From: an uncultured Cohaesibacter sp.
GTDB lineage: Bacteria; Pseudomonadota; Alphaproteobacteria; Rhizobiales; Cohaesibacteraceae
Assembly (NCBI GenBank): GCA_963667045.1
Contig: OY762934.1
Span: forward strand, 904,510 to 936,509
Length of the DNA: 32,000 nt
Reading direction: 5' to 3'
Positions within the stretch are counted from its first letter, which is position 1. Each line of letters begins with the position of its first letter. Of this stretch, positions 14,292-29,625 are shown in pieces. The notes below the pieces were generated by a model that made no database searches, had not been told where the DNA came from, and worked only from the letters and a program-made list of their open reading frames with translations. Made by a program: the position numbers and the translations under genes.

Positions 14292-14296
14292 GCTGG

Positions 14297-14576: not shown

Positions 14577-17500
14577 TCAAGCCCGGATGGAAAGCGTCGA
14601 GGGATTGACGCGCCTCAGGAGACGATCCCCAGCCCCGGTTCGACGGCTGACCTGAGCGATATCAAGGACAATATCGGTGAGGTCTTCCACCCCGTCTTCG
14701 ACCTGTGCACTTGCCGAATACTGCCAAACCGAGGCGTTGAGTTCGGTGGTTCTCAGGGTTTTGCCGGTATCGGGGTGGCGGACAGATACGCTATAGACTT
14801 CAAGTTCTTCGCTCAGCGGAATGATACTGTCGACCCAACTGTCTGCATCAAGGCGATCTCTCCGGATCCAGCTGAAGGTCAGGGTGCCCTCCGCTTCTGA
14901 ACGCAGGACACGCAAGTGCACTGGAGACAGCGGAACCAATCCCCGCCCGACAATTCCTATATCGAGATCGATATTTCTAGGATCCGACAGGGCTCCTCCG
15001 GTAGGAACAATCCTGAAAGGCAGTGTCTTTGCCAATTGAGCGGTATCGATTTCGACTGGCATGACGGCCTCGTCCAAAAGGACGAAACGAGCACCTGCCC
15101 CTGCCCCCTTCAGCGCGGCCGCTTCAGTTCCCAGTTGCCCCCGCAGCAGGGTCTTCAGCCGCCACAGAGATGGTCCTATCAATTCAGCATCGGCAAACTG
15201 CAGGATTTCCCAAGTCCCTTCACTGGATTCGATTGCTGCTGCATTTGTTCCTGCAAACAGGCTGGATTGATCGACGGAAGCCAGATCGCCGCCCGAGAGT
15301 TTAACTTCAACGACGCTCGCATGATCCCAACTGAAGCATTCCTGCCCCGCCAGGTCAGTTTGCAATGTGCCAATGACTGCCGACACCCTGAGCGTTTGCC
15401 GATAAGAGAAGCCAATGTCACGGCTTCCCTCATAGAGCCCCAACCCGCCCGGCCAAGGTGAGCAATAGCTCGCCAGGTACGGCGCATGAGGATAGCCGGT
15501 CTTGCCGGGCAACAATGGCAGATCAAGGACCACGCAGACGGGAAGAACGACAGAAGGCGTTGAATGCGACGTTGCGCGGATATTCTGAGCATAGGGAACC
15601 GCATTGCGGGGCGCCATCAGACTGGCCGAAATTTCCCGAGCATCTCCATCCTCGATATCATCGATCCGATAGACTTGCTGATAGCCTTGCGATTCTATGG
15701 AAACCAGATCGCCAGCTTCCAGATCCAGCTTTGACATCGGGAGCTTGAAGCTGGCTGTATGGCGCGCGTAATTGCTTTGCCTGAGCCAGTTTCTTGCCGC
15801 ATCGACCATGACAGGTTCCGTGGAAATGACAGCAAGGGATTGTGCGCTTTCCAGCTTCGTCCGGGCGCTTGGCTGATCATAACGGGCCACCGATTGCCGG
15901 TAGTCCTGAAACAGCTCGTTGAAGGAGAATGTGACACTGCTGGACTCATTTTCCCAAGGGTCGATCCGTTTACTGACAAGAGGTTCCTCTTCCACATCGA
16001 CAAGCAAGTTTTCATCGATAGCCGCAGAAATTCGTCTGTCCCGCTTTTCAAAGCGAAGCCTGTCGCCGCTTGTGATGAAGGAAATATTGAAGGCATTGCA
16101 GAGGTTCTCAAGCGCTGAACGCAGGGACATGCGTCGCTCGATGACAAATCCGTCGACGACGGCGGTGATGGCGTTCAGATCAGGAGCATCAAGGCCGTAG
16201 TCTTCCATCACCGTCTTGATGATATCCTGAAGCGGCGCATTGCCCAGACGACCGTTGAGCCAATGGCCGGTGTACCAGGCATCTCCGTCTGCCCAGGTCG
16301 CACGGCTCAGAGGAAATGCAGGAAATGGCCGCCCGTCCCAGGCCCACAGATACATCTGGTCCGTATCCACCATGGTGCCGCCATAAAGAGCGGACACGGG
16401 ATTTCTATCGACACCATCCCCCTGCCAATAATCAAGACTTGCTGTCAACATCGAGCGCTGCGCCGCATCGCTGCGTGCGCCGGTTGAAAAATACGGCAGG
16501 GCACTTTCCGAAGACTTTGCGTCCGGAAAGACATTGGGCTGATTGGGTCCCATATGGACGGCAGGGCATCCAAGTTCTGTAAACCAGATCGGTTTGGAAC
16601 ATGGCACCCAAGACGTTGCGGATGTACTTTCCGCACCGTCTGGCCGATCAAAATGCAGGTTGGACCACCAGCTTACCAGATCCTTGTAGCGGAAAACCCA
16701 ATCCTTGCCCTCTGCTCTGTCGGTGATCGGCGTTCTGATCTGTTTCTCCCGATCTGTACCGCTGGCATAGTACCAGTCGAACCCCTCGCCTCCGGCAACA
16801 TTGCCTTGCAAGTAGGCCGTCTCCAGCCCTGTATCGGAAACTGACGCATCCAAATGGGATTCGCCCACCCGCCAGTCAGACAGGGGCATGTAGTTGTCGA
16901 TGCCGACCGCGTCGATATTGTCGTCAGCCCACAACGCATCGAGATGGAACCGCACGGTTCCGCTGCCATCCTGAGGATGATGGCCGAAATACTCGCTCCA
17001 GTCTGCAGCATAGGTGAGTTTCGTGCGTCCGCCGAGTACATTGCGGACGTCAGCTGCGAGCTCCTTTAGGCGAGCAACAAAGGGATAATCACCTTCTGCG
17101 TCACGCAGTTGTGTCAGTCCTCGCAGCTCCGAACCGATCAGGAATCCGTCCACCCCGCCAGCGTCAGCGGCCAGCTGAGCGTAGTGCATGACAAAGCAGT
17201 GATAGTTCCATTCCTGCAGATCGTAGAATTGAGTAACTTGTTCTGCGGCCGCTGCGGTGTTGTCAACCGACCCGTCCTGATCAGGTCCGGGATAGCACGT
17301 GATCCGCCCTCGCCACGGAAAAGCCGCCTGCTCTCCGGCTCCATAGGGATCGGCAAGACCATTGTCCGCAGGAATATCCATCATGATGAATGGATAGAGG
17401 GTCACTTCCAGTCCACGTTCCCTGATCGCGGCAATCGCGTGCAGAACAGACACATCTGACGGCGTACCGCCATAGGCAGGGCGTCCGTCGGTAAGGCTGA

Positions 17501-18455
17501 CCCGCTCGACCTCGGATCGGGTCAAACCAGCCACCGACCACTGGCTTGTGTCTGTCACCTTGGTTTCATCGTCAATTTTCGGCTGGATAGCACACTTGCC
17601 AGCTCGAAGATCGGAACCGAACCAGGAAACCACAAGGGCGACACGGATAAGGTTCGGGCAGAGTGCGATCAGATGATCGAGCGATACCTCAAAATCGGTT
17701 CCTGGTTCATAGGAGTGCCTGTTTTCCGAACTCCACTCGCCCTCGGCATCCTTGCGCGACACCTCAGTAGTGTCATAGCCGAACTCGGTCGCACCGGGGA
17801 TCATCACGACCGATCTCACTTGTGTCTCCAGCGCTCCGATTGGCCTTACGACCTCAAAGGACAGCTGCGGAATCCGGTTGCCGAAGTCCTCCAGCGGCAA
17901 TTCCTCAAACACCACATAGGCCAGGCCGCGATAGGCCGAAGCCTTGCCAGCACCCTGCTTGGCTTCAATCAGACTGTCGGGAAGCTGATCGTCCGTTCCG
18001 CGATACACCCGGTAGGTGATGTCATCGAGATCCAGAACTGTGCCATTGGCCCAAATGCGACCGATATAGGCAATCTCACCTTCACACAGACCAACAGCAA
18101 AATTGGCTGAATAGCTGTAGGTGGTCTCGGTGGTCGTCGCCCCCATGCCGCCCTTTGACGCGCCGGTCTGTCGTTTTCTCGAGGTGACTTCCTCAACAAG
18201 GTTGGTCGCCCAGATAATCTGCCCGGTCAAGCGGGCTCGGCCATAGAGGCGTGGAATAGACGCTCCTTCCGTCGAGGTCTGCACCGTCAGGTCGGAAAGG
18301 CTCGAGCCAACCACCGAACGCGAGGAGCCAAAAAGCTTCTGATCGACATAAGCGCCACCGACAGCACCGAGAGCTCCACCTATTGCAGCCCCCAGCGGTC
18401 CGAACAGGGCACCGCCGACAACGCTGCCCGCCGTTTTCAAAACAAGAGTGGTCAT
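14577..18455 (-). CDS. g15: GTA host-specificity / baseplate multidomain protein (RcGTA g15 type)
   Basis: 1292 aa with an N-terminal glycine-zipper segment (GGALFGPLGAAIGGALGAVGGA). Size and position after the NlpC/P60 gene are typical of RcGTA g15 (TIM-barrel-like plus phage-tail domains). Its ATG overlaps the g14 stop (ATGA at 18452-18455). Confidence 0.92.
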   Translation of the reverse strand: MTTLVLKTAGSVVGGALFGPLGAAIGGALGAVGGAYVDQKLFGSSRSVVGSSLSDLTVQTSTEGASIPRLYGRARLTGQIIWATNLVEEVTSRKRQTGASKGGMGATTTETTYSYSANFAVGLCEGEIAYIGRIWANGTVLDLDDITYRVYRGTDDQLPDSLIEAKQGAGKASAYRGLAYVVFEELPLEDFGNRIPQLSFEVVRPIGALETQVRSVVMIPGATEFGYDTTEVSRKDAEGEWSSENRHSYEPGTDFEVSLDHLIALCPNLIRVALVVSWFGSDLRAGKCAIQPKIDDETKVTDTSQWSVAGLTRSEVERVSLTDGRPAYGGTPSDVSVLHAIAAIRERGLEVTLYPFIMMDIPADNGLADPYGAGEQAAFPWRGRITCYPGPDQDGSVDNTAAAAEQVTQFYDLQEWNYHCFVMHYAQLAADAGGVDGFLIGSELRGLTQLRDAEGDYPFVARLKELAADVRNVLGGRTKLTYAADWSEYFGHHPQDGSGTVRFHLDALWADDNIDAVGIDNYMPLSDWRVGESHLDASVSDTGLETAYLQGNVAGGEGFDWYYASGTDREKQIRTPITDRAEGKDWVFRYKDLVSWWSNLHFDRPDGAESTSATSWVPCSKPIWFTELGCPAVHMGPNQPNVFPDAKSSESALPYFSTGARSDAAQRSMLTASLDYWQGDGVDRNPVSALYGGTMVDTDQMYLWAWDGRPFPAFPLSRATWADGDAWYTGHWLNGRLGNAPLQDIIKTVMEDYGLDAPDLNAITAVVDGFVIERRMSLRSALENLCNAFNISFITSGDRLRFEKRDRRISAAIDENLLVDVEEEPLVSKRIDPWENESSSVTFSFNELFQDYRQSVARYDQPSARTKLESAQSLAVISTEPVMVDAARNWLRQSNYARHTASFKLPMSKLDLEAGDLVSIESQGYQQVYRIDDIEDGDAREISASLMAPRNAVPYAQNIRATSHSTPSVVLPVCVVLDLPLLPGKTGYPHAPYLASYCSPWPGGLGLYEGSRDIGFSYRQTLRVSAVIGTLQTDLAGQECFSWDHASVVEVKLSGGDLASVDQSSLFAGTNAAAIESSEGTWEILQFADAELIGPSLWRLKTLLRGQLGTEAAALKGAGAGARFVLLDEAVMPVEIDTAQLAKTLPFRIVPTGGALSDPRNIDLDIGIVGRGLVPLSPVHLRVLRSEAEGTLTFSWIRRDRLDADSWVDSIIPLSEELEVYSVSVRHPDTGKTLRTTELNASVWQYSASAQVEDGVEDLTDIVLDIAQVSRRTGAGDRLLRRVNPSTLSIRA

Positions 18456-18931
18456 GATGCTCCTTTCCCGGCCACGTCATTCAGCCGGAAGGATGGAAAG
18501 GCATAGACGCCGCACAAATGCCGCTGCCACCAAGGTGAGAAGGACACCAGACTGACGCAAGCCCCGGCCTGCGCATGGATAAACCGGCTGTCATCGAACA
18601 GAATGCCGGCATGTTTGGCGGGAAACCCTTTTCGATAGCGAAACAACAAAACATGGGCTGGTTGCCGCGCCCCAGCATCAACAGGCTGCAAATACCGTCC
18701 GGCAGCATTGGCCAGCGTTTCTTCGCCGTCGGCATCAGCCCAATCCGGATTATAGGCAGGCGGTGTTTCGAGTATCGGCCAGAAGGCGCCATAGACCCCG
18801 CGTATCAGGCCCAGACAATCGCAACCAGCCCCTTTACAACAGGCCTGATGCTTGTAGGGGGTACCGATCCAACTCATGGCCTCTTCAAGGATCATCGCCG
18901 CACTTACAGATAGTCTTTCTGTGTCAGTCAT
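18452..18931 (-). CDS. g14: NlpC/P60-family phage cell-wall peptidase (RcGTA g14 type)
   Basis: 159 aa. Catalytic Cys context GAGCDCLGLIRG and a downstream His (KHAGIL). In the canonical g14 position. Confidence 0.92.
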   Translation of the reverse strand: MTDTERLSVSAAMILEEAMSWIGTPYKHQACCKGAGCDCLGLIRGVYGAFWPILETPPAYNPDWADADGEETLANAAGRYLQPVDAGARQPAHVLLFRYRKGFPAKHAGILFDDSRFIHAQAGACVSLVSFSPWWQRHLCGVYAFPSFRLNDVAGKGAS

Positions 18932-18934
18932 GGG

Positions 18935-19828
18935 CTAGTCCTCGAAAAGCGCAGAGCCGTTACTTTGCTGGGAAAGCTCAGGATAGGTCAGGATGAAATC
19001 GTTGCCCGGCATGTGGGGGAAACCGCGAAAATTGAGCTGATTGGCAAACACGGTCCGGCAGGTTGCAAAGCTTTTGTCACACCCGACGAAAACCTTCACG
19101 CGATCGCCGACCTTGATGCCGGAATGAACTGGCAGCCAGAGCTCTACCAAATCCTCAGCACCTGATTGTTGATGGGAGAGAATGTCAAACGCCATGTCCT
19201 TTGCTGCCCCGGATTGGAGCAGCATTTGCCCCATGGCAAGCCGCCCGGCTTCAGGCTGACTATCAAGTGTCAGTTCCAGCCATGTTTGCGACAAGATTGC
19301 GGTTACCTCGCCCTCAAAACTCAACCCCAGAGCATCGAGATCAAGAGTGCAGCGGGTATCTCCCACATTGGCGTCGCAGCGATATTGGTAGACACGCCCC
19401 TTGTCCTGTTCCATATCGACAGAGAGGGAGCGGATCTCTGCCTGAAAATTCTGGCTGTCCCGCTTGATCTCGCCCAGATACCCGCTGCGCAGCAAAACGG
19501 CCTGCTCTGGGTCCTGCCAATTCACACGCCAGGTCTCGATTGTCGCGGCATCATAGCGTCCGCTCATGAGATCCGCCTCGGTGATGCGATCCGAAGAAAG
19601 CGCTCCGGCAACGTCCTGATCGTCGCTGGCAAATCCGTCGCTCTGACGAATTTCAGAGCCAGTGAAGCCCGCATCTGGTTCACAAGAAATGCCTTGCAGC
19701 TCTATTGGTCTGTCGTGATCGGTAAATCCGAGAGCGAAGCCATCAGAGCGCTTGAGAATCCAGCATGTGGCAAGCGTCGTAACACCGCTCGCAAGATGGG
19801 CAGCCAATGCATTGGGAAGAGTCTTCAC
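18935..19828 (-). CDS. g13: GTA tail hub protein (RcGTA g13 type, DUF2163 / BR0599-like)
   Basis: 297 aa. N-terminus LPNALAAHLASGVTTLATCWILKRSDG is typical of this family. GTG start overlaps the g12 stop (GTGA at 19825-19828). Confidence 0.9.
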   Translation of the reverse strand: MKTLPNALAAHLASGVTTLATCWILKRSDGFALGFTDHDRPIELQGISCEPDAGFTGSEIRQSDGFASDDQDVAGALSSDRITEADLMSGRYDAATIETWRVNWQDPEQAVLLRSGYLGEIKRDSQNFQAEIRSLSVDMEQDKGRVYQYRCDANVGDTRCTLDLDALGLSFEGEVTAILSQTWLELTLDSQPEAGRLAMGQMLLQSGAAKDMAFDILSHQQSGAEDLVELWLPVHSGIKVGDRVKVFVGCDKSFATCRTVFANQLNFRGFPHMPGNDFILTYPELSQQSNGSALFED

Positions 19829-20451
19829 AGCTTGATCTCCACCAGTGGGATGGTTGGAATGTCGCCAGCTTCAAAGGCACTGAGGGAGAACTCGAGCTTG
19901 TCGATGTCAAAGCGGACCGGCACATCGAATTTGAAGCCTGCGGTAATCATCACTCCTGTGAGAGGCGCTTCATCAAAGGTGATAAGCCCGGTCTCCAGAT
20001 CAAGCGAAAAGGCGGTCGTTTCACCCCCGTCGAGTGCGACCCTTACCGTGTCAGCAACCGGCTTACCAATTTTCCTCTGATAGGGAGCGTGGAATGCGCC
20101 ATAAGTCTTTAACAGCTGAAAGCCGGTTTGTTCCCCATCGCCGCTGCCGATGACCTGATCGATTGACTGCGGCACTTTGCCGACAGCACAGGAAGCATGG
20201 TCAAAGGGGTCGCGGAAACGAAAGCCATAGAGCCGCCCGCGCCGTTCCTCGAAAAAGGCGATGACCGTTTGCAGATCGGCAAAGGAGCGGACACCAAGCC
20301 CGGCATCATAGCTCCGCCGTGAATCGGCCCAGCGGGCGTTTCGTTCCTCAAAGCCGGAGGCAAGGGTTACCACATCCGTTCGCCGCTCCGGGCCACCAGA
20401 CGCGCCGAACCCTACATCGAGCGGGAAGCATATTTCATGAAATCCAGTCAT
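19825..20451 (-). CDS. g12: GTA distal tail protein (RcGTA g12 type, DUF2460-like)
   Basis: 208 aa. MTGFHEICFPLDVGFGASGGPERRTDVVTLASGFEERNARW matches the conserved N-terminus of the family. In the canonical position. Confidence 0.9.
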   Translation of the reverse strand: MTGFHEICFPLDVGFGASGGPERRTDVVTLASGFEERNARWADSRRSYDAGLGVRSFADLQTVIAFFEERRGRLYGFRFRDPFDHASCAVGKVPQSIDQVIGSGDGEQTGFQLLKTYGAFHAPYQRKIGKPVADTVRVALDGGETTAFSLDLETGLITFDEAPLTGVMITAGFKFDVPVRFDIDKLEFSLSAFEAGDIPTIPLVEIKL

Positions 20452-20471
20452 TGACTTGTTCCGATTGATAC

Positions 20472-20508
20472 AAAAAAGGGGCCGTTTCCCTTCACTGGAA
20501 GTAGCCCC
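20472..20508 (-). terminator. intrinsic-terminator-like hairpin between g11 and g12
   Basis: Minus-strand RNA: GGGGC-UAC-UUCC-AGUGAAG-GGAA-ACG-GCCCC followed by UUUUUUG (plus-strand A run at 20472-20477). Confidence 0.45.
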
Positions 20509-20577
20509 GCCTGCCGTTGCATGTCACATTGATAAGAGCCGAGCGCTTCAAAAGGCGCTATGCAGCGTCGCCCCGAT

Positions 20578-21180
20578 TCAAAGGCCGCGGCGCCCGCGGC
20601 CAACCACCCGTGCCAGTCGGGTTGCGATCTGGTTTTCCGACTTTGAAAACGAGCTGACATCCGGGGTGCTGATATTCATGACGATGTTGACCGCCTGTCC
20701 GCCACCACCCGGCATGGCAACGCCGAGCCTGCCGTCGGCACCGCGCTGAAGCGGCATGATCGCTTCGGCCCCAGCCTCTCCCATGAGTCCGGTGCCTGAG
20801 CCTGTCGGGAAGAGCGAAGGCGTCGAAACCACACCACCCTTGGCAAAAGGGGTCAGCCCCCCCAAAAGCGAGGCGAGCCCACCACTGCTGGAGGAAGTGA
20901 GCGAAGAGAAGAGCCCTGATGCAAGACTTGAGACAGAACCTGACAGGAGTTGCCTGAGCGGCTCCAATCCGGCACTGAGAGCACTTTTGCTAAGATCCTG
21001 AGCCAGACGGCTGAAGACATCCTCAAGGCTCTTGCCCCGAACAATGGCATCTTCAAATGCATCGGCCACCTTGTCGCCGAGCCTGTCGGCCTGTTTCTGA
21101 GCCGCCGTCAGGTCTTTGGTGAAGGACTTCATGTCCGCTTCGACCTTGACGACGGCCGTTTCCACGACTTCATCAGCCAT
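20578..21180 (-). CDS. g11: short GTA tail tape measure protein (RcGTA g11 type)
   Basis: 200 aa. Conserved FAKGGV...GLMGEAGAEAIMPLQRGADGRLGV block. The short length is characteristic of GTAs as opposed to siphophages. Confidence 0.88.
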   Translation of the reverse strand: MADEVVETAVVKVEADMKSFTKDLTAAQKQADRLGDKVADAFEDAIVRGKSLEDVFSRLAQDLSKSALSAGLEPLRQLLSGSVSSLASGLFSSLTSSSSGGLASLLGGLTPFAKGGVVSTPSLFPTGSGTGLMGEAGAEAIMPLQRGADGRLGVAMPGGGGQAVNIVMNISTPDVSSFSKSENQIATRLARVVGRGRRGL

Positions 21181-21246
21181 GAGTGTTCCCTTTCCTCTTG
21201 CCTTTCGCAGGCAAGAAAAGCATTCGGTTTTAGGCTGGACGCCTGA

Positions 21247-21474
21247 CTAGTCAGGAAATGCTGCGCAGAGCAGATCCAGGTCCAGGCGACTGAGGTTGTT
21301 GGCCCGCTGCCCTAGGAGGGAACCGGCCATCAGGATTTCCGTAGGCGTGGCCGCCCAGATTGTTTGTGGCGTCCAGCCGAGACGCTGGCTTGCCAGTGCA
21401 AACAGAAAAAGCCAGGGGAACTTGGTAGCACTCGAGGCCGATCCTCCAGAGGTGGACCGGCCTATGTGGGGTTT
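21247..21474 (-). CDS. g10.1: tail assembly chaperone extension (RcGTA g10.1 / rcc01693-family), -1 frame relative to g10, probably made as a g10-g10.1 frameshift fusion
   Basis: My own translation of the -1 frame: ...KFPWLFLFALASQRLGWTPQTIWAATPTEILMAGSLLGQRANNLSRLDLDLLCAAFPD*. The FPW...LGxxPxxxWxxTPxEL pattern is that of the g10.1 family. The frame is open from 21504 but has no ATG/GTG/TTG before the conserved block; the only ATG is 26 codons from the end. Absent from the supplied ORF track. Confidence 0.6.
   Translation of the reverse strand, partial: KPHIGRSTSGGSASSATKFPWLFLFALASQRLGWTPQTIWAATPTEILMAGSLLGQRANNLSRLDLDLLCAAFPD
21436..21474 (-). promoter_or_regulatory. candidate -1 programmed ribosomal frameshift signal (slippery A-AAC-CCC + 5-nt spacer + hairpin)
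   Basis: The g10 zero frame reads CCA AAC CCC ACA TAG, so the heptamer AAACCCC (21474-21468) is in X-XXY-YYZ register. A 5-nt spacer ACAUA follows, then a 27-nt hairpin (21462-21436): GGCCGGUCC-A-CC-UCU-GG-A-GGAUCGGCC, 11 bp with one G-U pair and one mismatch. Confidence 0.55.
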
Positions 21475-21818
21475 GGCAAGGATTGCCCTCCAGTTGCAGC
21501 ATCTTCAATATCCGGGCTGAAAGTCTCCCTGAGCAGATCGACCAGTGCCGTAGTCAGAGTGGCGGCTCCCCCCTTGCAACGCATGGCGGCGGCTTCAGCG
21601 TCCGAGATCTCAGCACCACCGGCCCGCAAGGCGGCACCGAGGATCTTGATGAGATCACCACTCCGGACCCTGCCGCCTGAAAAGCGTTCGGCAAGAGATC
21701 CGATATTGTCCAATTCCATGCTGTCTTCCAGTTCGGCGAGCGCTGCAAGGGTCAGGCACAACCTGTAGGTCTGATCGTCAAGGCAGATAGAAATTTCGCC
21801 GCGTCGTCTGTTTACCAT
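21462..21818 (-). CDS. g10: GTA tail assembly chaperone (RcGTA g10 type)
   Basis: 118 aa. MVNRRRGEISICLDDQTYRLCLTLAALAELE is typical of the 'gene transfer agent family protein' that follows the tube gene. Confidence 0.85.
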   Translation of the reverse strand: MVNRRRGEISICLDDQTYRLCLTLAALAELEDSMELDNIGSLAERFSGGRVRSGDLIKILGAALRAGGAEISDAEAAAMRCKGGAATLTTALVDLLRETFSPDIEDAATGGQSLPNPT

Positions 21819-21828
21819 CAGATTGCCC

Positions 21829-22242
21829 TCAGGCCGCAGTGAAGGTCAGGGCGCCTGCGGATTCGAGCGCCATTTCGAAGGACAGCTCGTTGTCATGCTG
21901 GCCGGAATATTCCAGCGCAGTGATCTGGAACGCCCCCTCAAGTGTACCGAAGTTGGGAATGACGACTTGCCAGCCGGCAATGGTGCCATCAAAGAACAGC
22001 GACCGGATACGCTCATCGCTTTCGCCATCCTTGAAAAGGCCGCTGCCAGACAAGCTGGCGCGGCGACTGCCCGCCCCTTCCAGCAGTTCGCGCCATCGTC
22101 CTGCGGATTCGGAATGGCTGATGTCAACGCTCTCGGCGTTGAAGGAAAGCGAACGGGCGCGCAAACCGGCGACCGTGATGAAGGCATCATCGCCCTCATT
22201 GCGCACCTTGAGCAGAAGGTCTTTGCCTTTCTGTGCAGTCAT
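21829..22242 (-). CDS. g9: major tail (tube) protein, TP901-1 family (RcGTA g9 type)
   Basis: 137 aa. KGKDLLLKV...FITVAGLRARSLSFNAESVDISH pattern of the TP901-1 major tail family. Confidence 0.92.
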   Translation of the reverse strand: MTAQKGKDLLLKVRNEGDDAFITVAGLRARSLSFNAESVDISHSESAGRWRELLEGAGSRRASLSGSGLFKDGESDERIRSLFFDGTIAGWQVVIPNFGTLEGAFQITALEYSGQHDNELSFEMALESAGALTFTAA

Positions 22243-22307
22243 GGAAATGTCTCCTGGAATTTTAAGAAAATGAGGATCCGGTCAATGGGCCTGACCATAT
22301 GGCCAGT

Positions 22308-22730
22308 TCAGTTGGCAAGGGCATCGGTTACCGCCCTGATCTGCATGATGCCCTGTAGCAGATGGTTCTTGCGGTCGGGTCGCCAATCCTGTCGCTCAAT
22401 CTGCAGATTGATCAGAGCATGGTCGGTCATGGGAAGGTGAACGTCCGGGGCCAGCAACTGGGAACGAAGCAGCGCGAAGATCTCCTGCTGCTTCAGGCGA
22501 TCCTCGCTGGCGGTCCAGACCGTGATGGCAATGCGATGTTCGTCCCCCTGTTCCGTCCCGGTGCTCCAGTCACGGGAATAGGTGGTGGTGAGCGTCAGAT
22601 AGGGGAACGGACTGTTGCGCTTGGGCTCATCATAGAGACGAACGCCACCGAGCAGAGCGATCAGGTCATCATTGCCCTTGAGTACAGTCAGGATGGCCTG
22701 TTCCAGTTCTCTGGAAGCCAAAAGCGTCAT
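22308..22730 (-). CDS. g8: tail terminator (RcGTA g8 type, DUF3168-like)
   Basis: 140 aa. LEQAILTVLKGNDDLIALLGGVRLYDE...PFPYLTL is typical of DUF3168 proteins. Confidence 0.88.
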   Translation of the reverse strand: MTLLASRELEQAILTVLKGNDDLIALLGGVRLYDEPKRNSPFPYLTLTTTYSRDWSTGTEQGDEHRIAITVWTASEDRLKQQEIFALLRSQLLAPDVHLPMTDHALINLQIERQDWRPDRKNHLLQGIMQIRAVTDALAN

Positions 22731-22984
22731 GATTGCCTCCTTATGTAGGCCAATTCCTTCAGCAGGCTGGCAAGTGGGGCCGCGGGCGCAATATCCCTGT
22801 CACCGAAGGTGTCGCGCACCAGCCCGTCGCCGTAGAGGTGCAACTCCGTTCGTCCATCCGAGCGGGAGGTCTCGACAGTCAAGTCTAGCCCCTGCGACGC
22901 TGCCGCAGCTTCCAGCCCTTCGGCCAGGCCGGCAACACGCGCGGACAGGATACGGTCGGCAAGCCCAGTTACGTGGCGGCTCAT
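22727..22984 (-). CDS. 85-aa hypothetical protein inserted between g7 and g8
   Basis: Its ATG overlaps the g7 stop (ATGA at 22981-22984) and its stop overlaps the g8 ATG (ATGA at 22727-22730). Amino-acid composition is balanced, unlike the Arg/Pro-rich alternative frames. There is no counterpart in the canonical RcGTA gene list as I recall it. Confidence 0.6.
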   Translation of the reverse strand: MSRHVTGLADRILSARVAGLAEGLEAAAASQGLDLTVETSRSDGRTELHLYGDGLVRDTFGDRDIAPAAPLASLLKELAYIRRQS

Positions 22985-23316
22985 GTGTCACTCCCTAATC
23001 GCCTGCGTGCCTTGATGATCAGCCAGCATTGCCGGGTGTCAGGATCTTCCACACTGAGGCAGTCATAGAGCTCGTCCCGGAAGCGCAGAGCGGTGAGGTC
23101 CGCAAGGTCATCACGAAAGCGCACGACAAAGGATAGCATGGGAGAATTGGCGTTCTGCTCCGCCTCCGAGCGCTCACTGGCACCAGATGCCAGAGCGCCC
23201 GCCCAGACGACGGCAATTGCTGCGAGCGCCTCAACGCCGTTCCATGGCGTCTCGTCAGCATAGACGGGTTTGAGCAATTCGATCCGGTGTCGAAGACCTG
23301 CCGGATCGAAGTGCAT
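22981..23316 (-). CDS. g7: head-tail stopper / head closure protein (RcGTA g7 type)
   Basis: Taken from the internal ATG 23316 (MHFDPAGLRHRIELLKPV...), giving 111 aa. LRHRI, VWA and SFVVRFRDD are typical of the phage head-closure family. The track start 23490 would overlap g6 by 100 nt. Confidence 0.85.
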   Translation of the reverse strand: MHFDPAGLRHRIELLKPVYADETPWNGVEALAAIAVVWAGALASGASERSEAEQNANSPMLSFVVRFRDDLADLTALRFRDELYDCLSVEDPDTRQCWLIIKARRRLGSDT

Positions 23317-23390
23317 GGGAGTAAGGCCAGCTTGTGCCAACGCACCCTCCTTGTTGCAGTGGAAACAGATTTCGTTTCTCTTGAAACGAG

Positions 23391-23951
23391 CTAGAGGCGA
23401 AGGTTGCGATAGGGCGCAAGCAATGGTCTCAATGCCCCGGCAAGAGCCGGGATAAGCGATGGATCGGCGATTAACCGCCTCTCGTACCATTCGGCGACGA
23501 TCATCTTCATCGCCAACCGCAACGGCTCCGGCACGTCCTCGGCGGTCGGCCCGAAGCCGGTCTCGACGTCAATTTGCAGGCGCTGTTTCCCCGACAACAG
23601 GAAACCATCAAGATTGGCGAGGGTTGCCGGATTGTCCGTCTGGAAAATCGACAATCCCGAGACATCCAGCTCGGTTGCCGTACCGTCAGCCTCGATGACC
23701 GATAGTGTCAGCAGTTCGGCAACGGGCTGCAGTGGCAAGCGAAATGTCTCCCCCAACGGCCCTTCGAGCAGAACACGCCAGGTCTGGGAAACGAGGTGAT
23801 GACCGGTCATGTGTTCCAGATGCACGCGGGCAGCACTGAGGAATGCCCGCAGCAGATCATCCTCGGCATCCTGATCGATCTTCAGATAGGCCTTGATATC
23901 GGCAAGGCTGACCGGCTCCACCTGAGGAGCAGTCAAAAGCATGGCTGGCAT
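23391..23951 (-). CDS. g6: head-tail adaptor / gp6-like connector (RcGTA g6 type)
   Basis: 186 aa. LADIKAYLKIDQDAEDDLLRAFLSAARVHLEHMTGHHLVSQTW is the classic gp6-like connector N-terminus. Confidence 0.88.
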   Translation of the reverse strand: MPAMLLTAPQVEPVSLADIKAYLKIDQDAEDDLLRAFLSAARVHLEHMTGHHLVSQTWRVLLEGPLGETFRLPLQPVAELLTLSVIEADGTATELDVSGLSIFQTDNPATLANLDGFLLSGKQRLQIDVETGFGPTAEDVPEPLRLAMKMIVAEWYERRLIADPSLIPALAGALRPLLAPYRNLRL

Positions 23952-24010
23952 ATCGACACCATTGCAAATGAAACAGTCAAGACATCTGACGATGCAGCTG
24001 ATTCAATGAA

Positions 24011-24078
24011 GAAAAATGCCTTTGCCGAGAGGGAGAAAACCGGCAAAGGCACAAGGTGGGGCGGAGCATTCTCCGCCC
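24011..24078 (-). terminator. two tandem hairpins after the capsid gene, the second a canonical intrinsic terminator
   Basis: Minus-strand RNA after the g5 stop: GGGCGGAG-AAUG-CUCCGCCC (24078-24059), then UGCCUUUGCCG-13 nt-CGGCAAAGGCA (24051-24017) followed by UUUUUCUUCAUU. Confidence 0.6.
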
Positions 24079-24096
24079 GCGGGGTCAGATCATCAA

Positions 24097-25365
24097 TCAG
24101 GCAGAAAACTGCAGAAGCTTGATGGCGTCATAGTCCTGCACACCGCCACCGACGCGCTTGGTGACATAGAACAGGACATAGGGTTTGGACGAATACGGAT
24201 CACGCAGAATGCTGAGGCCGAGACGGTCGACAACCAGATAGCCGCGCTTGAAGTCACCAAATGCCAGAGCACAGGCATCCGCAGCGATGTCTGGCATGTC
24301 TTCTGCCTCGGTGATGGCATAGTTGAGCAACGATGCCTTGGCGCCAATGGCTGCTGGCGGCTGCCAGAGATAGTTGCCATCGCTGTCCTTGAGCTTGCGG
24401 ATCTCGGCCTGGGTAGTACGGTTCATCACGAACTGGGCATTCTGGCGATACCCTGCCTTGAGGCTGTAGACCAGATCGATCAGCGGATCCCCCGGATTGG
24501 TCGCACCGAAGCCACCAGCCGTGCCGGTGGCAATGGTCCCCAACTTGCCCCAGGCCCAGGCGCTTTCAGCAACAACATCCTCAGCCATGAACCCCTTCGG
24601 CTTGTTGATGCCATCCCCATTGACGAAGGCTGCACCCTCCTGTTCGGCGAAAGCGGTTTCTACCTCGGCGGCGATCCACTCATCGACGTTGATGGCCGCG
24701 TCTTCCAGCAGGCTCGGCGTGGCCGCCGGCATGGCATAGAGTTCCATGGCGGTGTAGGACAGCTCGGCAAGAGACGAGGCTCCGGTCTGCGGACGAGCGG
24801 CGGTTTCCCCTACCCAGCCGACTTCCGGGCCGGATTTGGCGAAGGGTTTCTTGAGAGTGGAGCCGGAGATTTCACGCACATCGGCAATGGCGCGGATCGG
24901 CGAAATAGCGGCAAGGCGGCGACCGACCTCGGCCTCAACCAGTTCCGGCACCAGATAGCCACCGTCCGGATCGGAACTGATGGACATGGCCTTGGCTTCC
25001 AGATCACGCAGATCCTGTTCCACACCGGAACGGATATAACGATCAAAAGCAGCCTTGTGTTCCATTGCCCGCAAAGACAGGGGAGCCGCATGGCGAGCGG
25101 TGACAAAGCCATCGCCCAGAGACGGACGGCGCGCCTTGAGGATCAGGTTGTCGAGTGCCGACTGCTGATCATCCAGAGCCTTGGAGATGCGATCCACCTT
25201 ATGTTCGGTGAGCCCGTCGACAGAGCGCTTTTCGATCTCCTGCAGGCGATCATCATTGGCCCGCTTGAAAGCTTCGAAGGAGACGAGGAAATCGTCAAAG
25301 GCCGCACCGAGCTCGCCATTGACCAGCGATTTCGTTTCAGGAGACGGAGTGTTCAGTTCTTTCAT
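24097..25365 (-). CDS. g5: HK97-family major capsid protein (RcGTA g5 type)
   Basis: About 422 aa from ATG 25365; the track start 25398 is a TTG and remains possible. An N-terminal delta-like region with FEAFKRANDDRLQEIEKR is followed by an HK97-fold body. Confidence 0.95.
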   Translation of the reverse strand: MKELNTPSPETKSLVNGELGAAFDDFLVSFEAFKRANDDRLQEIEKRSVDGLTEHKVDRISKALDDQQSALDNLILKARRPSLGDGFVTARHAAPLSLRAMEHKAAFDRYIRSGVEQDLRDLEAKAMSISSDPDGGYLVPELVEAEVGRRLAAISPIRAIADVREISGSTLKKPFAKSGPEVGWVGETAARPQTGASSLAELSYTAMELYAMPAATPSLLEDAAINVDEWIAAEVETAFAEQEGAAFVNGDGINKPKGFMAEDVVAESAWAWGKLGTIATGTAGGFGATNPGDPLIDLVYSLKAGYRQNAQFVMNRTTQAEIRKLKDSDGNYLWQPPAAIGAKASLLNYAITEAEDMPDIAADACALAFGDFKRGYLVVDRLGLSILRDPYSSKPYVLFYVTKRVGGGVQDYDAIKLLQFSA

Positions 25366-25416
25366 GAGGAAACTCTTTTCGTTTGAAATGAGTGGCAATT
25401 TGCGATTGACTCCAGC

Positions 25417-26157
25417 CTAGTGTTTGGCTGCCCTGAGCATGGCCCGGGTCAGAGTGTGCAGGCTGGAAATCGCATCTGAAGGCTCAAGAAAGGCAGCGTC
25501 CTGCGTGCCACCGAGGCCGGAAAGACCGTGGGCCATCAAGGCCCGGGCCTGTGAACGGCTCAGCCCAGCGTCCTGCATGAGCTTGCGTTCCAATTCTCTT
25601 TTGCTGAAGGGAGGATCTTCAGGCGCCGGCGCCGCAAACCGCCCCTCCCCGGATTTGACTGACGAAATGCGGGCATCCGGCTGCATCGGGAAAGTGACGA
25701 CCGAGATTTCCCAAAGGTCCAGTTCCATGAGATAGCGAATGCCGCTCTTGGCATCCTTCTGCCCGCGAACGGTGCGAAAGCCAATGGACAGACCGTCCAG
25801 AATGCCCGCCTTCATCATAGACAGGATCTCGCGTGCCTTGGCCACGTCAAGTGCCAGCCTGCCGCGCACGAACAGCCCCTTGTCATCCTCACGGATCGTC
25901 AGCCACTGGCCGATCGGCTGGGCAGGATCGTGCTGATAGAGGAGTTTGATGCCCTCAAGGCCGTGCTGGGCAAGGCTCTTGGCAAAGGCCCCGGGCTGGA
26001 TCACATCGTGCCCCAGGTCTTCCTTGCCAAACAGGCAGGCATAGCCCTCGAAGGCACCATCATCGCCGACCGTTTCCAGCGCCGATGGCAGAGCCTTCTT
26101 CTCTGTTAGCTCAGTGCCGCAGCTTTTGGCCTCGACACGCTTCGTCAAATTTTTCAT
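25417..26157 (-). CDS. g4: HK97-family prohead protease (RcGTA g4 type)
   Basis: 246 aa. FEGYACLFGKEDLGHDVIQPGAF, LLYQHD and SIGF motifs. The C-terminal tail with RELERKLMQDAGLSRSQARAL is common in this protease family. Confidence 0.93.
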   Translation of the reverse strand: MKNLTKRVEAKSCGTELTEKKALPSALETVGDDGAFEGYACLFGKEDLGHDVIQPGAFAKSLAQHGLEGIKLLYQHDPAQPIGQWLTIREDDKGLFVRGRLALDVAKAREILSMMKAGILDGLSIGFRTVRGQKDAKSGIRYLMELDLWEISVVTFPMQPDARISSVKSGEGRFAAPAPEDPPFSKRELERKLMQDAGLSRSQARALMAHGLSGLGGTQDAAFLEPSDAISSLHTLTRAMLRAAKH

Positions 26158-26317
26158 AGGTTTATACCTGATCTCTTACATTGAAGTCGAAATGAGGCGG
26201 ATACGCGCAACCGGCTCGTGGCCGATGTGGCTTTCCAGCGAGCGGGAGAAACGGGCAAAGACCTCCCGGTGATCGAGCCGTCTTTGCTGCCTTGCTGACT
26301 GACCGGAATGCGGTTGA

Positions 26318-26497
26318 TCACTCGAACAGGCTGGTGAGACGGGCGATTTCCTCGACGAAGTCCTGAAACCGCTTGTTGGACGCGGCCTGCTCGCGCAGGC
26401 ACCAGACCAGAAGACCACTGGCCGCGCTCGCCCAAAGGAAAAGTGCGACGTGGGCGAGATCGCCTTTTTCGGCAAAAATCTGCAAAGCATCTGCCAC
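26318..26497 (-). CDS. 59-aa hydrophobic peptide in the g3.5 slot between portal and protease
   Basis: I place the start at GTG 26497, 1 nt after the portal stop, with GGGGAGGG 7 nt upstream. ATG 26521, used for the in-track frame, has no SD. Sequence (V read as M): MADALQIFAEKGDLAHVALFLWASAASGLLVWCLREQAASNKRFQDFVEEIARLTSLFE, with one central TM-like helix. Confidence 0.5.
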   Translation of the reverse strand: MADALQIFAEKGDLAHVALFLWASAASGLLVWCLREQAASNKRFQDFVEEIARLTSLFE

Positions 26498-26498
26498 A

Positions 26499-27791
26499 TC
26501 ATTTCCCTCCCCGGTCTGCATTCTGAGCAGCGTCAACAGGCTCGGCGAGCGGGCTGTAGCCAACCGCGATGCGCTTTTCACTTTCCGTGAGGAAGGCCGC
26601 ATTGCCGACCCGGCTCCACAGCGCCTCGCGCTCGCTTGCCAGTGCAGTGACGTGATCGAGATCGATCTTCAGCTCAAAGGCGTCGTCATAGGCTGGCGAG
26701 AGCCAGCGGGCGATATTCTGCAGACAGCGATTGGCAAGCGGCAGGACGGTCTGTCGCCAGAAGGCGCGGTTGGCTTCGGCATAGTTGGCATAGGTGTTGT
26801 CACCGGGAATGCCGAGCAGCATCGGCGGCACCCCGAATGCCAGGGCGATCTCGCGCGCGGCGCTGTTCTTGGCATCGATGAAATCCATGTCACGGGGCGA
26901 CATGCTCATGCTCTTCCAGTCCAAGCCACCTTCCAGCAGCAAGGGTCGCCCGGCATTCATCGCGCCCAGATAGCCCTCTTCAAGCTCCCGTTTCAAACGC
27001 TCGAACTGCTTGTCGCTGAGGTTTCCTGCCTCCGAGGCCGCATAGACCAGCGCTCCGGAGGGGCGAGCCGAGTTGTCCAGCAGAGCCTTGTTCCAGCTGG
27101 CCGCTGCGTTATGAACATCAAGGCTGACCTGGGCCGCTTCCAGCGGACTGAGGCCATAGTGATCATCGTGAGGATGAAACAGCGTGATATGCAGAATGGG
27201 CGGCAATGGCATCGCATCGTCAGACTGCAAAAAGCGCACAGACTTGCCACCGATGGTGTAGTCATAGGCCTCCGGCCAGCCGTTCGACCCGGGCACAACT
27301 TTCATCCGGTCGGGCCGCAAACAATACAGCTCCCTCAAGCTGCTGGCTCCGTAAACCGCCTCGACATAGGCATTACCCGATACAAGCAGATGGCCGTAGA
27401 GGCTCTCAAGCCATGTCGCCCCATCCTGCCGTTCATTCGGCTGGCGCAAAAGGGAAAGGACCGGATGCTCGGTAAGCCGCTCACCACCGACCAGACAAAA
27501 GATCGTGGCAGAGGCTGCAGCTTCCGAAATCATCCGGATCGAGCGATAGACAATCGGGTTACGGGCATAGCCCTGCATGGCGAGCGCGGCATAGTCTCTT
27601 GGCGTCCAGCGCGGTCTCCCTGTCTGGTGCACTGCAATGAGAGCTCCAGTGCGGGAGCTTTTGCCTTCCAGATCGGCCCCTTCCATCGCCATGTGGGGAG
27701 GTTGGGGAGTGGATGGCTGATTTTTGGACGAGCGCGTTCGCGCCGGCCCTCTCAAGGTCCAGCGAAGCATGTGCTTCTTCCTTCCTTTCAT
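26499..27791 (-). CDS. g3: HK97-family portal protein (RcGTA g3 type)
   Basis: 430 aa. RWTPRDYAALAMQGYARNPIVYRSIRMISEAAAS is the conserved GTA/HK97 portal N-terminal block. ATG 27791 lies 6 nt after the terminase stop; later ATGs at 27770, 27692 and 27686 are possible. Confidence 0.95.
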   Translation of the reverse strand: MKGRKKHMLRWTLRGPARTRSSKNQPSTPQPPHMAMEGADLEGKSSRTGALIAVHQTGRPRWTPRDYAALAMQGYARNPIVYRSIRMISEAAASATIFCLVGGERLTEHPVLSLLRQPNERQDGATWLESLYGHLLVSGNAYVEAVYGASSLRELYCLRPDRMKVVPGSNGWPEAYDYTIGGKSVRFLQSDDAMPLPPILHITLFHPHDDHYGLSPLEAAQVSLDVHNAAASWNKALLDNSARPSGALVYAASEAGNLSDKQFERLKRELEEGYLGAMNAGRPLLLEGGLDWKSMSMSPRDMDFIDAKNSAAREIALAFGVPPMLLGIPGDNTYANYAEANRAFWRQTVLPLANRCLQNIARWLSPAYDDAFELKIDLDHVTALASEREALWSRVGNAAFLTESEKRIAVGYSPLAEPVDAAQNADRGGK

Positions 27792-27797
27792 GAAGTG

Positions 27798-29159
27798 TCA
27801 GATTGCCCGAACTTTCGGTTGCGACCGATCGCCGAGGCAGAGATGCGTCACGGCCCAGACCATTGCGTCAAGCCGGTCGGGGCTTTTACCAGACGACAGG
27901 CCGTCCAGTCCGAAGTCACACATTTCATCTTCCAGTTCGGCCATGTTGCCGACGTGGCGCACCCGGCCCTGCTCATAGAGAGCGCTGACAGGTTCAGCGC
28001 GCAGATATTTCCCACGCGTTGCCCGCACAGGCCGGACAGGCACCGTCGCATCGATATTGCCGAGGATGGTCGTCACCATTTCCCCGCCCTGATTGACCTC
28101 GGCCACCACGCAATCGGCCTCGAAGCGGTTGTAGAGCGCAATGGCCTTGGTTGCCCAGGCTGTCGGGCGGGCGCTGGTCAGCGTGCTGTCCCTGAGGATG
28201 AAGCACAAACCGTCTGCGTCTACCCCCGCCACCACCAACCCGCAGGCATCGGCGCTCTTGCCCGAGGTTGCAGGTGGATCGACAGCGACCACAATCCGGC
28301 TGAGAGTCGCGGGAGGATCATCGACCCTCAGCCGGTCGAGCTGATCGCGCTTCCACAGCGCGTCGGCCCTGTCTTCGATCAATTCACCATCCAGTTCCTG
28401 CCGTCCGAGGCGCGAGCCTTCATAACGACGCACGATGGTATCGAGAAATCCTGGCGCCAGATTGGCCAGATTGGCCCGCGTGGGGGCGTGGCTGATCGCC
28501 GTGGCAGGCTCTGCCATCAGCCGTTTGAGCAAGGGTGTCGGCTTGGGCGTTGTGGTCACGATCTGGCGCGGCTTTTGCCCCAGACGCAGGCCAAACTGGA
28601 GCATGTCCCAGGTGGCCTCGGCATGACGCCACTTGGCCAGCTCATCGCCCCAGGCCGCATCGAACTGTGGCCCGCGCAGGCTTTCGGGGTCTTCGGCCGA
28701 GAATATCTGCGCCACCGCACCGTTTGGCCATTCCAGTCTGCGGCGAGAAGGCTGCCAAACCGGTCGATCTTCCTTTGCGTGAATGGCCAGAAGGCCGGAC
28801 ACCCCTTCGACCATGACATCACGGGCGTCCTGAAGGGTTTCGCCGATAAGGGCAATCCGACCATAGGAGTGCGCAGCGAACGGCGGCCTACCCTGCACCA
28901 GCGCTTTGACCCATTCGGATCCGGTGCGCGTCTTGCCTGCACCACGCCCTCCCAGAACCAGCCAGGTGATCCAGTCACCTTCAGGCGGCAACTGATCCGG
29001 TCTTGCCCAGAGCTCCCAGTCGTGAAAGATCCGCCTCAGTTCAGTGGGGCTGAGACTCGCCAGAAAGCTCGCCTGCTGTTCCCTGCTTGAGCCCATCAAG
29101 GCGGCGCGCAAGTTCATCGCGGAGGAGGTCAAGCGTGCCTGTGTCTTCGCTGCTGTCAT
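27798..29159 (-). CDS. g2: large terminase subunit (RcGTA g2 type)
   Basis: LSPTELRRIFHDWELWARPDQLPPEGDW followed by Walker A LGGRGAGKT. Start uncertain: ATG 29159 has AGGAAAGAGG 6 nt upstream, and ATGs also occur at 29117 and 29096. Every canonical (ATG/GTG/TTG) start overlaps g1 out of frame by at least 56 nt. Confidence 0.93.
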   Translation of the reverse strand: MTAAKTQARLTSSAMNLRAALMGSSREQQASFLASLSPTELRRIFHDWELWARPDQLPPEGDWITWLVLGGRGAGKTRTGSEWVKALVQGRPPFAAHSYGRIALIGETLQDARDVMVEGVSGLLAIHAKEDRPVWQPSRRRLEWPNGAVAQIFSAEDPESLRGPQFDAAWGDELAKWRHAEATWDMLQFGLRLGQKPRQIVTTTPKPTPLLKRLMAEPATAISHAPTRANLANLAPGFLDTIVRRYEGSRLGRQELDGELIEDRADALWKRDQLDRLRVDDPPATLSRIVVAVDPPATSGKSADACGLVVAGVDADGLCFILRDSTLTSARPTAWATKAIALYNRFEADCVVAEVNQGGEMVTTILGNIDATVPVRPVRATRGKYLRAEPVSALYEQGRVRHVGNMAELEDEMCDFGLDGLSSGKSPDRLDAMVWAVTHLCLGDRSQPKVRAI

Positions 29160-29625
29160 CGCCGGCCTCTTTCCTGTCGTTGGCGTCATCCTGTCCCTGC
29201 GGATTGAGTTCCATGATCTTGTCGAGCGTCCGGGCGATTGTGCCCAGCATCCGCGCTTCCTTTTCATCAAAGGCGGCGCTACCGTTCTTCAGCTGCTGTT
29301 CAAGATGGCGAATCTGCTGGTCGGTCGCGTGATAGAGCCGCCGAACCATGGACAGGTGATCAATCCCGGCGTCTGGTGCTTCCGATCCGTCAGGAACACT
29401 TGACGCGATGGAGGCTGGTTCGTGCTCACCGATCGGGCTTTCTGCAGCGGCTTTTTCATCAGATTTCTGGTCAGTCTTCTCTACCTCCCAGAGTTTGCGC
29501 CTCTTCCTCAGCGTTGCAACGCTGATGCCATGGGCGGCGGCGATTGCCGCAAAGGACCGTTCTCGCTTCAGACAATCAAGCCGAACAGCCGTCCAGTCCG
29601 GTTGCCGTGACCGTTTGTTTGGCAT
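29041..29625 (-). CDS. g1: GTA g1-position protein, putative small terminase with N-terminal helix-turn-helix
   Basis: 194 aa from ATG 29625 (AGGA 7 nt upstream). HTH-like RSFAAIAAAHGISVATLRKRRK, an acidic low-complexity linker, and a helical C-terminal half. It is the first gene of the cluster, immediately upstream of the large terminase. Confidence 0.7.
   Translation of the reverse strand: MPNKRSRQPDWTAVRLDCLKRERSFAAIAAAHGISVATLRKRRKLWEVEKTDQKSDEKAAAESPIGEHEPASIASSVPDGSEAPDAGIDHLSMVRRLYHATDQQIRHLEQQLKNGSAAFDEKEARMLGTIARTLDKIMELNPQGQDDANDRKEAGDDSSEDTGTLDLLRDELARRLDGLKQGTAGELSGESQPH

Follow-up and report, generated by a model that had tools for sequence, protein, structure and literature searches.

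A 32,000-nucleotide stretch of the chromosome of an uncultured Cohaesibacter sp. of the order Hyphomicrobiales (contig OY762934.1, positions 904,510 to 936,509; hereafter the window) carries what is very probably the head-tail (structural) cluster of a gene transfer agent (GTA) of the Rhodobacter capsulatus type (RcGTA), inherited vertically and kept under purifying selection. We found an unbroken chain of co-oriented open reading frames (ORFs) on the minus strand, running from position 29625 down to 14577 with all frames open, that corresponds to g1 through g15 of RcGTA. Fifteen of the 17 canonical slots are filled by ORFs with family or structure-sequence matches in Pfam, NCBIfam, PHROGs and PDB sequences; the two remaining are g1, which has weak matches, and g3.5, which is assigned by position and conservation. 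Among solved structures, the best sequence match was the RcGTA protein for the capsid (g5), adaptor (g6), tail tube (g9) and g15; an earlier reading of the DNA (the sequence-only reading) had proposed comparing each ORF with RcGTA. The same reading had called for ratios of nonsynonymous to synonymous substitution rates (dN/dS) across relatives, and these lay well below 1 for every cluster gene (0.02-0.31 against the two closest species), including ORFs of only 59 and 85 amino acids. By every feature that can be tested in sequence, the cluster is a further member of the known RcGTA-type family. The source genome is a single contig of 5.24 Mb with 56.9% GC, and the cluster holds its sole HK97-type capsid gene (PF05065) and its sole g15 gene; by the identity of their g15 proteins, Cohaesibacter marisflavi (70%) and C. 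celericrescens (63%) are the nearest named relatives. Our literature search turned up no published account of a Cohaesibacter GTA. The genes of the cluster are as follows.

29041 to 29625, minus strand: g1, putative small terminase, 194 amino acids (HTH_28, 5e-4; PHROG TerS, 4.6e-4).
27798 to 29117, minus strand: g2, large terminase, TerL (Terminase_6N, 2.7e-31; Terminase_6C, 7e-24).
26499 to 27791, minus strand: g3, portal (Phage_portal, 1.3e-86; dN/dS 0.03-0.05).
26318 to 26497, minus strand: peptide in the g3.5 slot, 59 amino acids, GTG start (assigned by position; 76-97% identity in 15 of 15 relatives; dN/dS 0.06-0.15 against close species).
25417 to 26157, minus strand: g4, prohead serine protease (Peptidase_S78, 2e-34).
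24097 to 25365, minus strand: g5, HK97-fold major capsid protein (Phage_capsid, 7e-88; dN/dS 0.03).
23391 to 23951, minus strand: g6, head-tail adaptor (TIGR02215, 6.6e-34; RcGTA adaptor Rcc01688, 1.7e-8).
22981 to 23340, minus strand: g7, head-closure protein (stopper), probable TTG start (Phage_HCP, 2e-10; PHROG 25 'head closure Hc1').
22727 to 22984, minus strand: extra ORF between g7 and g8, 85 amino acids (ATGA coupling at both ends).
22308 to 22730, minus strand: g8, tail terminator or tail completion protein (Tail_completion_gp17, 2.9e-23).
21829 to 22242, minus strand: g9, tail tube (Phage_tail_2, 1.5e-46; RcGTA tube Rcc01691, 4e-48, full length).
21462 to 21818, minus strand: g10, tail assembly chaperone (Phage_TAC_11, GTA-gp10, 1.2e-25).
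21247 to 21474, minus strand: g10.1, chaperone extension, in the -1 frame after the slippery sequence A_AAC_CCC (21474-21468).
20578 to 21180, minus strand: g11, short tape measure, 200 amino acids (NF058675 'RcGTA-type tape measure', 8.4e-51; PHROG tape-measure families).
19825 to 20451, minus strand: g12, distal tail protein (DUF2460, 1.1e-83).
18935 to 19828, minus strand: g13, baseplate hub (Phage_phiJL001_Gp84_N, 3.6e-57; Phage_BR0599, 1.9e-23).
18452 to 18931, minus strand: g14, NlpC/P60 cell-wall peptidase (NLPC_P60, 1.9e-5; PHROG 329 'minor tail protein', 2e-13).
14577 to 18455, minus strand: g15, 'megatron' host-attachment protein, 1292 amino acids (GTA_TIM, 8e-141; Rcc01698_C, 2e-30; Phage-tail_3).

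All of the co-oriented minus-strand ORFs listed in the sequence-only reading were present where it had placed them, and the overlapping junctions it named could be read directly in the sequence (ATGA at 22981-22984, 22727-22730 and 18452-18455; GTGA at 19825-19828). Its gene order agrees with that of RcGTA by family matches, but it had passed over the 85-amino-acid ORF between g7 and g8. Families for both of the chaperones it proposed are present as well, but g10.1 lacks a separate start codon, and the TTG ORF listed at 21251-21508 lies in the wrong frame, is not conserved and was rejected. The -1 frame (21247-21504) instead matches Phage_TAC_6 (1.6e-12) and the rcc01693 family and is conserved in 15 of 15 relatives; with a slippery heptamer at the end of g10, the sequence of g10 and g10.1 has the usual G/GT-type frameshift arrangement. 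The small terminase proposed for g1 fits by position, with a weak helix-turn-helix (HTH) match and a weak TerS match. As for the extent of the cluster, g1 through g15 do occupy 14577-29625, but the module continues beyond 14577 into three small lysis-type genes (13832-14506).

The g1 ATG at 29625 and its Shine-Dalgarno sequence TCAGGAA are conserved genus-wide, and g1 shows 37-94% identity to its relatives with a dN/dS of 0.14-0.15 against two close species; g2, which overlaps g1 and whose start is uncertain (29096 to 29189), shows 75-99% identity across the genus and a dN/dS of 0.03-0.04. The g3.5-slot peptide had no family match in Pfam, NCBIfam or PHROGs. For g5, the best solved-structure match was RcGTA Rcc01687 (6e-88), and g15 matched its RcGTA counterpart at 1.4e-266 over residues 1-1276. 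The start of g7 is most likely the TTG at 23340, which lies 7 nt after AAGGAGG; the longer ORF (22981-23490) overlaps g6. At the position of the extra ORF, 13 of 15 relatives likewise have an ORF, with a common motif. The extra ORF has a dN/dS of 0.27-0.31; it returned no match in Pfam, NCBIfam, PHROGs or PDB sequence searches, and an AlphaFold2 model from a 4-sequence alignment had a predicted local distance difference test score (pLDDT) of 63.7, too low for use. The g11 match to NF058675 covers positions 30-218 of 220 and falls below the 220-bit equivalog cut-off. ORFs at 26154-26435, 20448-20660 and, beyond g15, 13546-13998 were rejected as genes because they matched no family, had an unusual composition or were poorly conserved.

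The chromosomal site of the cluster is stable. In 15 other Cohaesibacter species, the identical site reads penicillin-binding protein (PBP) and CxxCxxCC protein, cluster, then PepSY protein and response regulator (RR), with the same gene order within the cluster. Across 80 Hyphomicrobiales loci, which included Kaistia, Mesorhizobium, Rhizobium, Agrobacterium, Brucella, Hyphomicrobium and others, the genes for the RR, a histidine kinase (HK), a lipoprotein and CcmI were each found on the downstream side of g15 in between 58 and 68 loci. These shared downstream neighbors agree with the order-level synteny of RcGTA-like clusters reported previously (Shakya et al., 2017, bioRxiv 10.1101/189738). 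Synonymous divergence (dS) from the two closest species was mostly 0.17-0.41 in cluster genes and 0.13-0.61 in flanking host genes, which is the same range. Together with the stable site, these host-like rates speak for vertical descent.

We also found the separately encoded parts of an RcGTA-type system in the genome. The search for a gafA/gafYZ-like activator and for ctrA suggested by the sequence-only reading recovered a gafYZ-type pair, CtrA (427 bits, above cut-off) and ChpT. The one DUF6456 gene of the genome (286 amino acids) is directly preceded by a gene for a DnaA-type HTH protein of 138 amino acids, an arrangement that equals a split gafYZ; 15 kb past g1, the two genes are flanked by sufE and mucR (G000:C1:949091-950369; L105:13092-15040) and adjoined by a divergent DUF6477 gene. 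This layout of sufE, DUF6456, DnaA-like HTH and mucR is that of the split gafA locus described for Hyphomicrobiales (Sherlock and Fogg, 2022, PMC9638019). The tail-fiber locus that was likewise sought proved to be present as a single-copy gene for a DUF2793 protein of 408 amino acids with matches to tail-fiber PHROGs, 81 kb from the cluster (G000:C1:836077-838072; L108:5077-7072); it is followed by two small phage-related ORFs with matches to PHROGs of unknown function, and the trio stands alone among host genes. DUF2793 is the family of the RcGTA tail fiber Rcc00171. On the uptake side, ComEC and DprA are present, although both are widespread genes and carry little weight. RcGTA recipients need ComEC and DprA.

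Natural loss of the cluster within the genus ties these dispersed loci together. Two Cohaesibacter genomes, G002 (99% complete) and G008 (90% complete), lack the cluster, and in both the CxxCxxCC gene is followed by PepSY, RR and HK genes after about 600 bases (empty sites at L102:10012-10625 and L103:9148-9649, respectively). No convincing cluster remnant was found by blastx at either empty site; a single weak 27-amino-acid match to the low-complexity end of g11 was treated as chance. The DUF6456 (gafZ) and DUF2793 genes occur in every cluster-bearing Cohaesibacter species and in neither G002 nor G008. At the activator site of both genomes, sufE abuts mucR, with gafZ, gafY and the DUF6477 gene gone, and all other genes at the cluster and gafYZ sites are kept, as are all eight other ORFs between the PBP gene and sufE. 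In a tree of three flanking proteins, G002 and G008 are sisters (support 99) and the pair is sister to the cluster-bearing G006 (support 100). Because the site is order-wide and the two genomes are sisters beside G006, they represent one lineage that lost three separate loci. This co-loss is good comparative evidence that the dispersed loci make up one functional system in Hyphomicrobiales. The holin-like and spanin-like genes after g15 vanish along with the cluster in G002 and G008, which suggests that the lysis-type genes, including the holin-like gene, belong to the GTA system as well. DUF6477 probably belongs to the GTA regulon, because it is precisely missing together with gafYZ in both GTA-less species.

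Upstream of g1, the spacer between the CxxC gene and g1 was aligned with MAFFT across 16 Cohaesibacter species, among the more distant of which synonymous sites are saturated. Two conserved features stood out.

29843 to 29898, minus strand: putative promoter block (TTGACC...CGAACGG...TACAGTCGGA), near-invariant in 16 Cohaesibacter species.
29752 to 29781, minus strand: leader hairpin and T-run, terminator-like, between the promoter block and g1, with the stem kept.

The conservation of the first block suggests that it acts as the promoter of the cluster. For the hairpin, distant species keep the stem with different sequences, and TTTTT(A/G)TG always comes next. A scan with consensus promoters and terminators found sites no more numerous than in shuffled sequence.

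Beyond the other end of the cluster, the three small lysis-type genes begin 70 bases past g15.

14297 to 14506, minus strand: holin-like protein, 69 amino acids, two hydrophobic segments (68-97% identity in 14 relatives; dN/dS 0.03-0.05).
13995 to 14474, minus strand: i-spanin-like ORF, 159 amino acids (role assigned by position; overlaps the holin-like and o-spanin-like genes).
13832 to 14119, minus strand: o-spanin-like ORF, 95 amino acids (PHROG 1275 'Rz-like spanin', 7e-7; conserved across the genus).

The 69-amino-acid protein, which may function as a holin, had no Pfam, NCBIfam or PHROG family match, but hhalign (probability 96.5%, E 8e-10) shows its gene to be homologous to a small ORF that comes after g15 at 35 further loci of the Hyphomicrobiales. 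That ORF, the first after g15 in these 35 loci, encodes about 70 amino acids with two hydrophobic segments and the motif KPWYxS(R/K)TxW...GR, and corresponds to no curated family. In Kaistia-type loci, the slot after g15 is occupied by the DUF2793 fiber gene instead. The i-spanin-like ORF, also without a family match, shows 32-82% identity in the genus and a dN/dS of 0.5-0.8, a high value that is expected because its frame overlaps other genes. By tblastn over the Hyphomicrobiales loci, the overlapped spanin-like pair occurred only in Cohaesibacter, save for three weak matches to the 95-amino-acid ORF, and the pair thus looks genus-specific.

Drawing on Rhodobacter capsulatus and Caulobacter by analogy, we propose that in a subpopulation of cells, GafY and GafZ under the CtrA phosphorelay would switch on the promoter upstream of g1, and that transcription would read through the conserved leader hairpin. 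The g1/g2 terminase, g3 portal, g4 protease and g5 capsid would then produce small heads that package host DNA at random by a headful mechanism. The g6 to g8 proteins, perhaps with the 85-amino-acid protein, would join the head to a short tail consisting of the g9 tube, built with the g10 and g10-10.1 frameshift chaperones and the 200-amino-acid tape measure, and ending in a g12-g15 baseplate and the separately encoded DUF2793 fiber. The appended holin-like and spanin-like genes would help to lyse the producer cell, and in the recipient the g14 peptidase would open the wall for DNA to be taken up via ComEC and DprA. The sequence-only reading had suggested a producing element, which is still an inference: the analysis establishes homology, the order of the genes, vertical descent, purifying selection and the joint distribution of the loci, whereas expression, the formation of particles, random packaging, lysis and transfer are inferred.

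Purifying selection and the co-loss of loci show that the system is used, not what it is used for, and conserved, expressed particles could in principle serve another purpose, such as DNA release, the killing of neighbors or a role in biofilms or stress, with no transfer in practice, in which case the element would be a domesticated phage particle; in the literature that we searched, we met no report of an RcGTA-type element transferring DNA in Hyphomicrobiales. However, the cluster keeps a complete set of packaging genes, and these are its best-conserved portion (g1, g2 with 75-99% identity, and the portal), ComEC and DprA exist on the recipient side, and the layout matches that of systems proven in the literature to transfer DNA in Rhodobacterales and Caulobacter. 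We therefore consider a use other than transfer improbable, though it is the strongest competitor to a GTA in the full sense.

Several observations weigh against a working GTA of the RcGTA type. Clusters have decayed in two related species: in G016 the stretch from the middle of g7 to g10.1 has been cleanly deleted, without a gap in the assembly (G016:C70; L098 8545-8852), and in G017 g15 is split into two frames (G017:C1; L096 4409-6343). Intactness is thus no guarantee of use in every lineage. Both species keep gafZ and the fiber gene. RcGTA is released by an endolysin plus a holin, but no endolysin was found here: the Phage_lysozyme search gave a weak 27-bit fragment about 3 Mb off, and the GH108 search, silent in the control genomes too, was uninformative. 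In single-sequence PDB searches, g7, g8 and the 85-amino-acid ORF matched no RcGTA protein, which for g7 and g8 we read as divergence because Pfam places both correctly. Finally, g15-type proteins occur in true phages too (PDB 8gtc).

The two damaged clusters, the two species without a cluster and the failure to find an endolysin would also fit a silent relic, that is, an old defective prophage that is unexpressed and has stayed intact in this strain by chance. Such a relic would not be expected to show a dN/dS of 0.02-0.31 for every gene at a dS of 0.2-0.4, a conserved promoter and leader, a site common to the order, and regulator and fiber loci that are kept wherever the cluster is kept and lost where it is lost, and we regard this explanation as very unlikely. 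That the cluster is a phage satellite or a temperate phage, whether active or newly integrated, is scarcely credible: although the top two matches in the phage collection are 58-63% identical, one of them is itself a GTA cluster with the RR and HK genes of a host, identity to isolated phages does not exceed 46-50%, integrase and replication genes are lacking, as are att repeats and tRNA genes, and the cluster holds the same position in 15 species with host-like dS.

The evidence on phages and neighbors behind that judgment is as follows. The sequence-only reading had regarded the cluster as a domesticated GTA rather than a prophage, on the grounds that integrase, repressor and replication genes were lacking and that the flanks were housekeeping genes, and this was confirmed in the window and beyond it on both sides. 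Among the larger ORFs compared with Pfam and NCBIfam, no integrase, repressor or replication gene was found in the window, in the 12 kb to its left or in the 15 kb to its right; when every larger ORF between genome positions 892,000 and 952,000 (about 60 kb) was scanned, host genes alone were returned. The nearest tyrosine integrases (PF00589) are more than 300 kb from the cluster, with serine recombinases not searched genome-wide, and neither a tRNA gene nor an att-like direct repeat was found near the cluster. Capsid identity was 52-69% to Hyphomicrobiales GTA clusters compared to at most 46% to isolated phages, and TerL of isolated phages reached at most about 50%. Best matches to bona fide temperate phages, which the earlier reading had named along with adjacent integration or replication genes as grounds for giving up a GTA, were thus not what we observed, and those of its grounds that we examined came out in favor of a GTA. 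Both of the top records in the phage collection are metagenomic. MW091529.1 ('Bacteriophage sp. 103231', from sewage; 1-18183) is deposited as a phage genome. It consists of an RcGTA-type cluster with the RR and HK genes of a host behind it, and resembles either a piece of a Hyphomicrobiales chromosome or, within a virome, GTA DNA that had been packaged. Its annotation gives the host RR and HK genes as 'antibiotic efflux protein'. The marks of a temperate prophage (an integrase with att sites, immunity, replication and patchy presence) were not seen in the Cohaesibacter cluster.

The host genes around the cluster encode two-component systems, CcmI-E-F-H, DegP, GlnE, aminopeptidase N, a penicillin-binding protein, SufE and MucR. 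About 6 kb separate the ccmI-E-F-H genes (ccmH, ccmF, ccmE, ccmI; window 4340-8735) from the cluster and its attached lysis-type genes (13832-29625), as they do in most Hyphomicrobiales loci. A 464-amino-acid ORF at window positions 8921-10315 had no convincing family match.

Compared to RcGTA of R. capsulatus (rcc01682-rcc01698; PDB 6TBA, 6TEH), the Cohaesibacter cluster has the same g1-g15 order and a similarly short tape measure of about 200 amino acids, and in both systems the fiber and activator are encoded at separate loci and the CtrA relay is present. In contrast to RcGTA, the Cohaesibacter activator is split into two genes, the extra 85-amino-acid ORF lies between g7 and g8, and g7 and g8 themselves have diverged beyond what a single-sequence search can match. 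Neither an endolysin nor a head spike was identified, with no search aimed at the latter. In Cohaesibacter the holin-like and spanin-like genes adjoin the cluster, whereas RcGTA has a separate locus (rcc00555/556), and the flanks are PBP/CxxC and PepSY/RR rather than the pabC/cysE of Rhodobacterales. Most of these differences from the R. capsulatus model are general traits of Hyphomicrobiales clusters. Like the 'large clusters' of this order (Shakya et al., 2017; Kogay et al., 2019, as cited in PMC9638019), the Cohaesibacter cluster adjoins the same RR, HK, lipoprotein and ccmI genes, and the small holin-like ORF after g15 is common to Cohaesibacter and 35 loci. Relative to other Hyphomicrobiales, the Cohaesibacter interval from g6 to g8 is among the longest because of the 85-amino-acid ORF, and the DUF2793 fiber gene lies 81 kb away whereas in Kaistia it stands at the 3' end of the cluster. 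Caulobacter crescentus belongs to a different order from Cohaesibacter, and searches with the DUF6456, DUF2793 and ChpT families matched the Caulobacter control genome as they did the Cohaesibacter genome. Its activator GafYZ is reportedly likewise two proteins, a finding of 2022 that is attributed to Gozzi et al.

In itself the cluster is of little weight, RcGTA-like clusters being common in the order: a figure credited in PMC9638019 to Kogay et al. (2019) puts them in about 60% of Hyphomicrobiales genomes. What the genus offers is a natural experiment in which most species keep the cluster, two have damaged ones and one sister pair is without the three loci. As marine bacteria that can be grown in culture, Cohaesibacter species would allow a test of whether particles are made by RcGTA-type elements of Hyphomicrobiales; our literature search found no paper that showed this.

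The lysis-type genes also bear on the history of these elements. The lysis locus of RcGTA is flanked in Rhodobacterales by ccmE (cycJ) and a heme lyase gene (Hynes, 2016). Because the cluster and its lysis-type genes lie near ccm in Cohaesibacter and the Rhodobacterales lysis locus lies beside ccmE, a single ancestral locus is hinted at. We tentatively raise the possibility, which we think rather unlikely, that the Cohaesibacter GTA is more self-contained than the model systems, with a lysis cassette at the end of the operon made up of an order-wide holin-like gene and a genus-specific spanin pair, and that the ancestral GTA was perhaps one locus beside ccm that was later split in Rhodobacterales when the head-tail cluster moved and the lysis genes stayed. 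A candidate for a GTA-specific endolysin was rejected: the 321-amino-acid protein with two PG_binding_1 repeats (G000:C1:944321-945286; L105:8322-9287), whose gene stands between the cluster and gafYZ at a distance of about 10 kb from g1, matches endolysin PHROGs, probably due to its binding domains, and is retained in the GTA-less species (39-41% identity).

In several Cohaesibacter species, a DUF2793 gene is also found near an additional g15-like gene of about 45% identity; the source genome has no such second gene. These loci were found at G003:C24:32048-38580, G005:C28:511496-530066 and G012:C1:904101-910813, and further at G015:C1:4443760-4450361, G001:C15:170308-176697 and G007:C525:2261-6877. 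They could represent another element, be it a prophage whose tail tip resembles that of RcGTA or a further GTA-like module.

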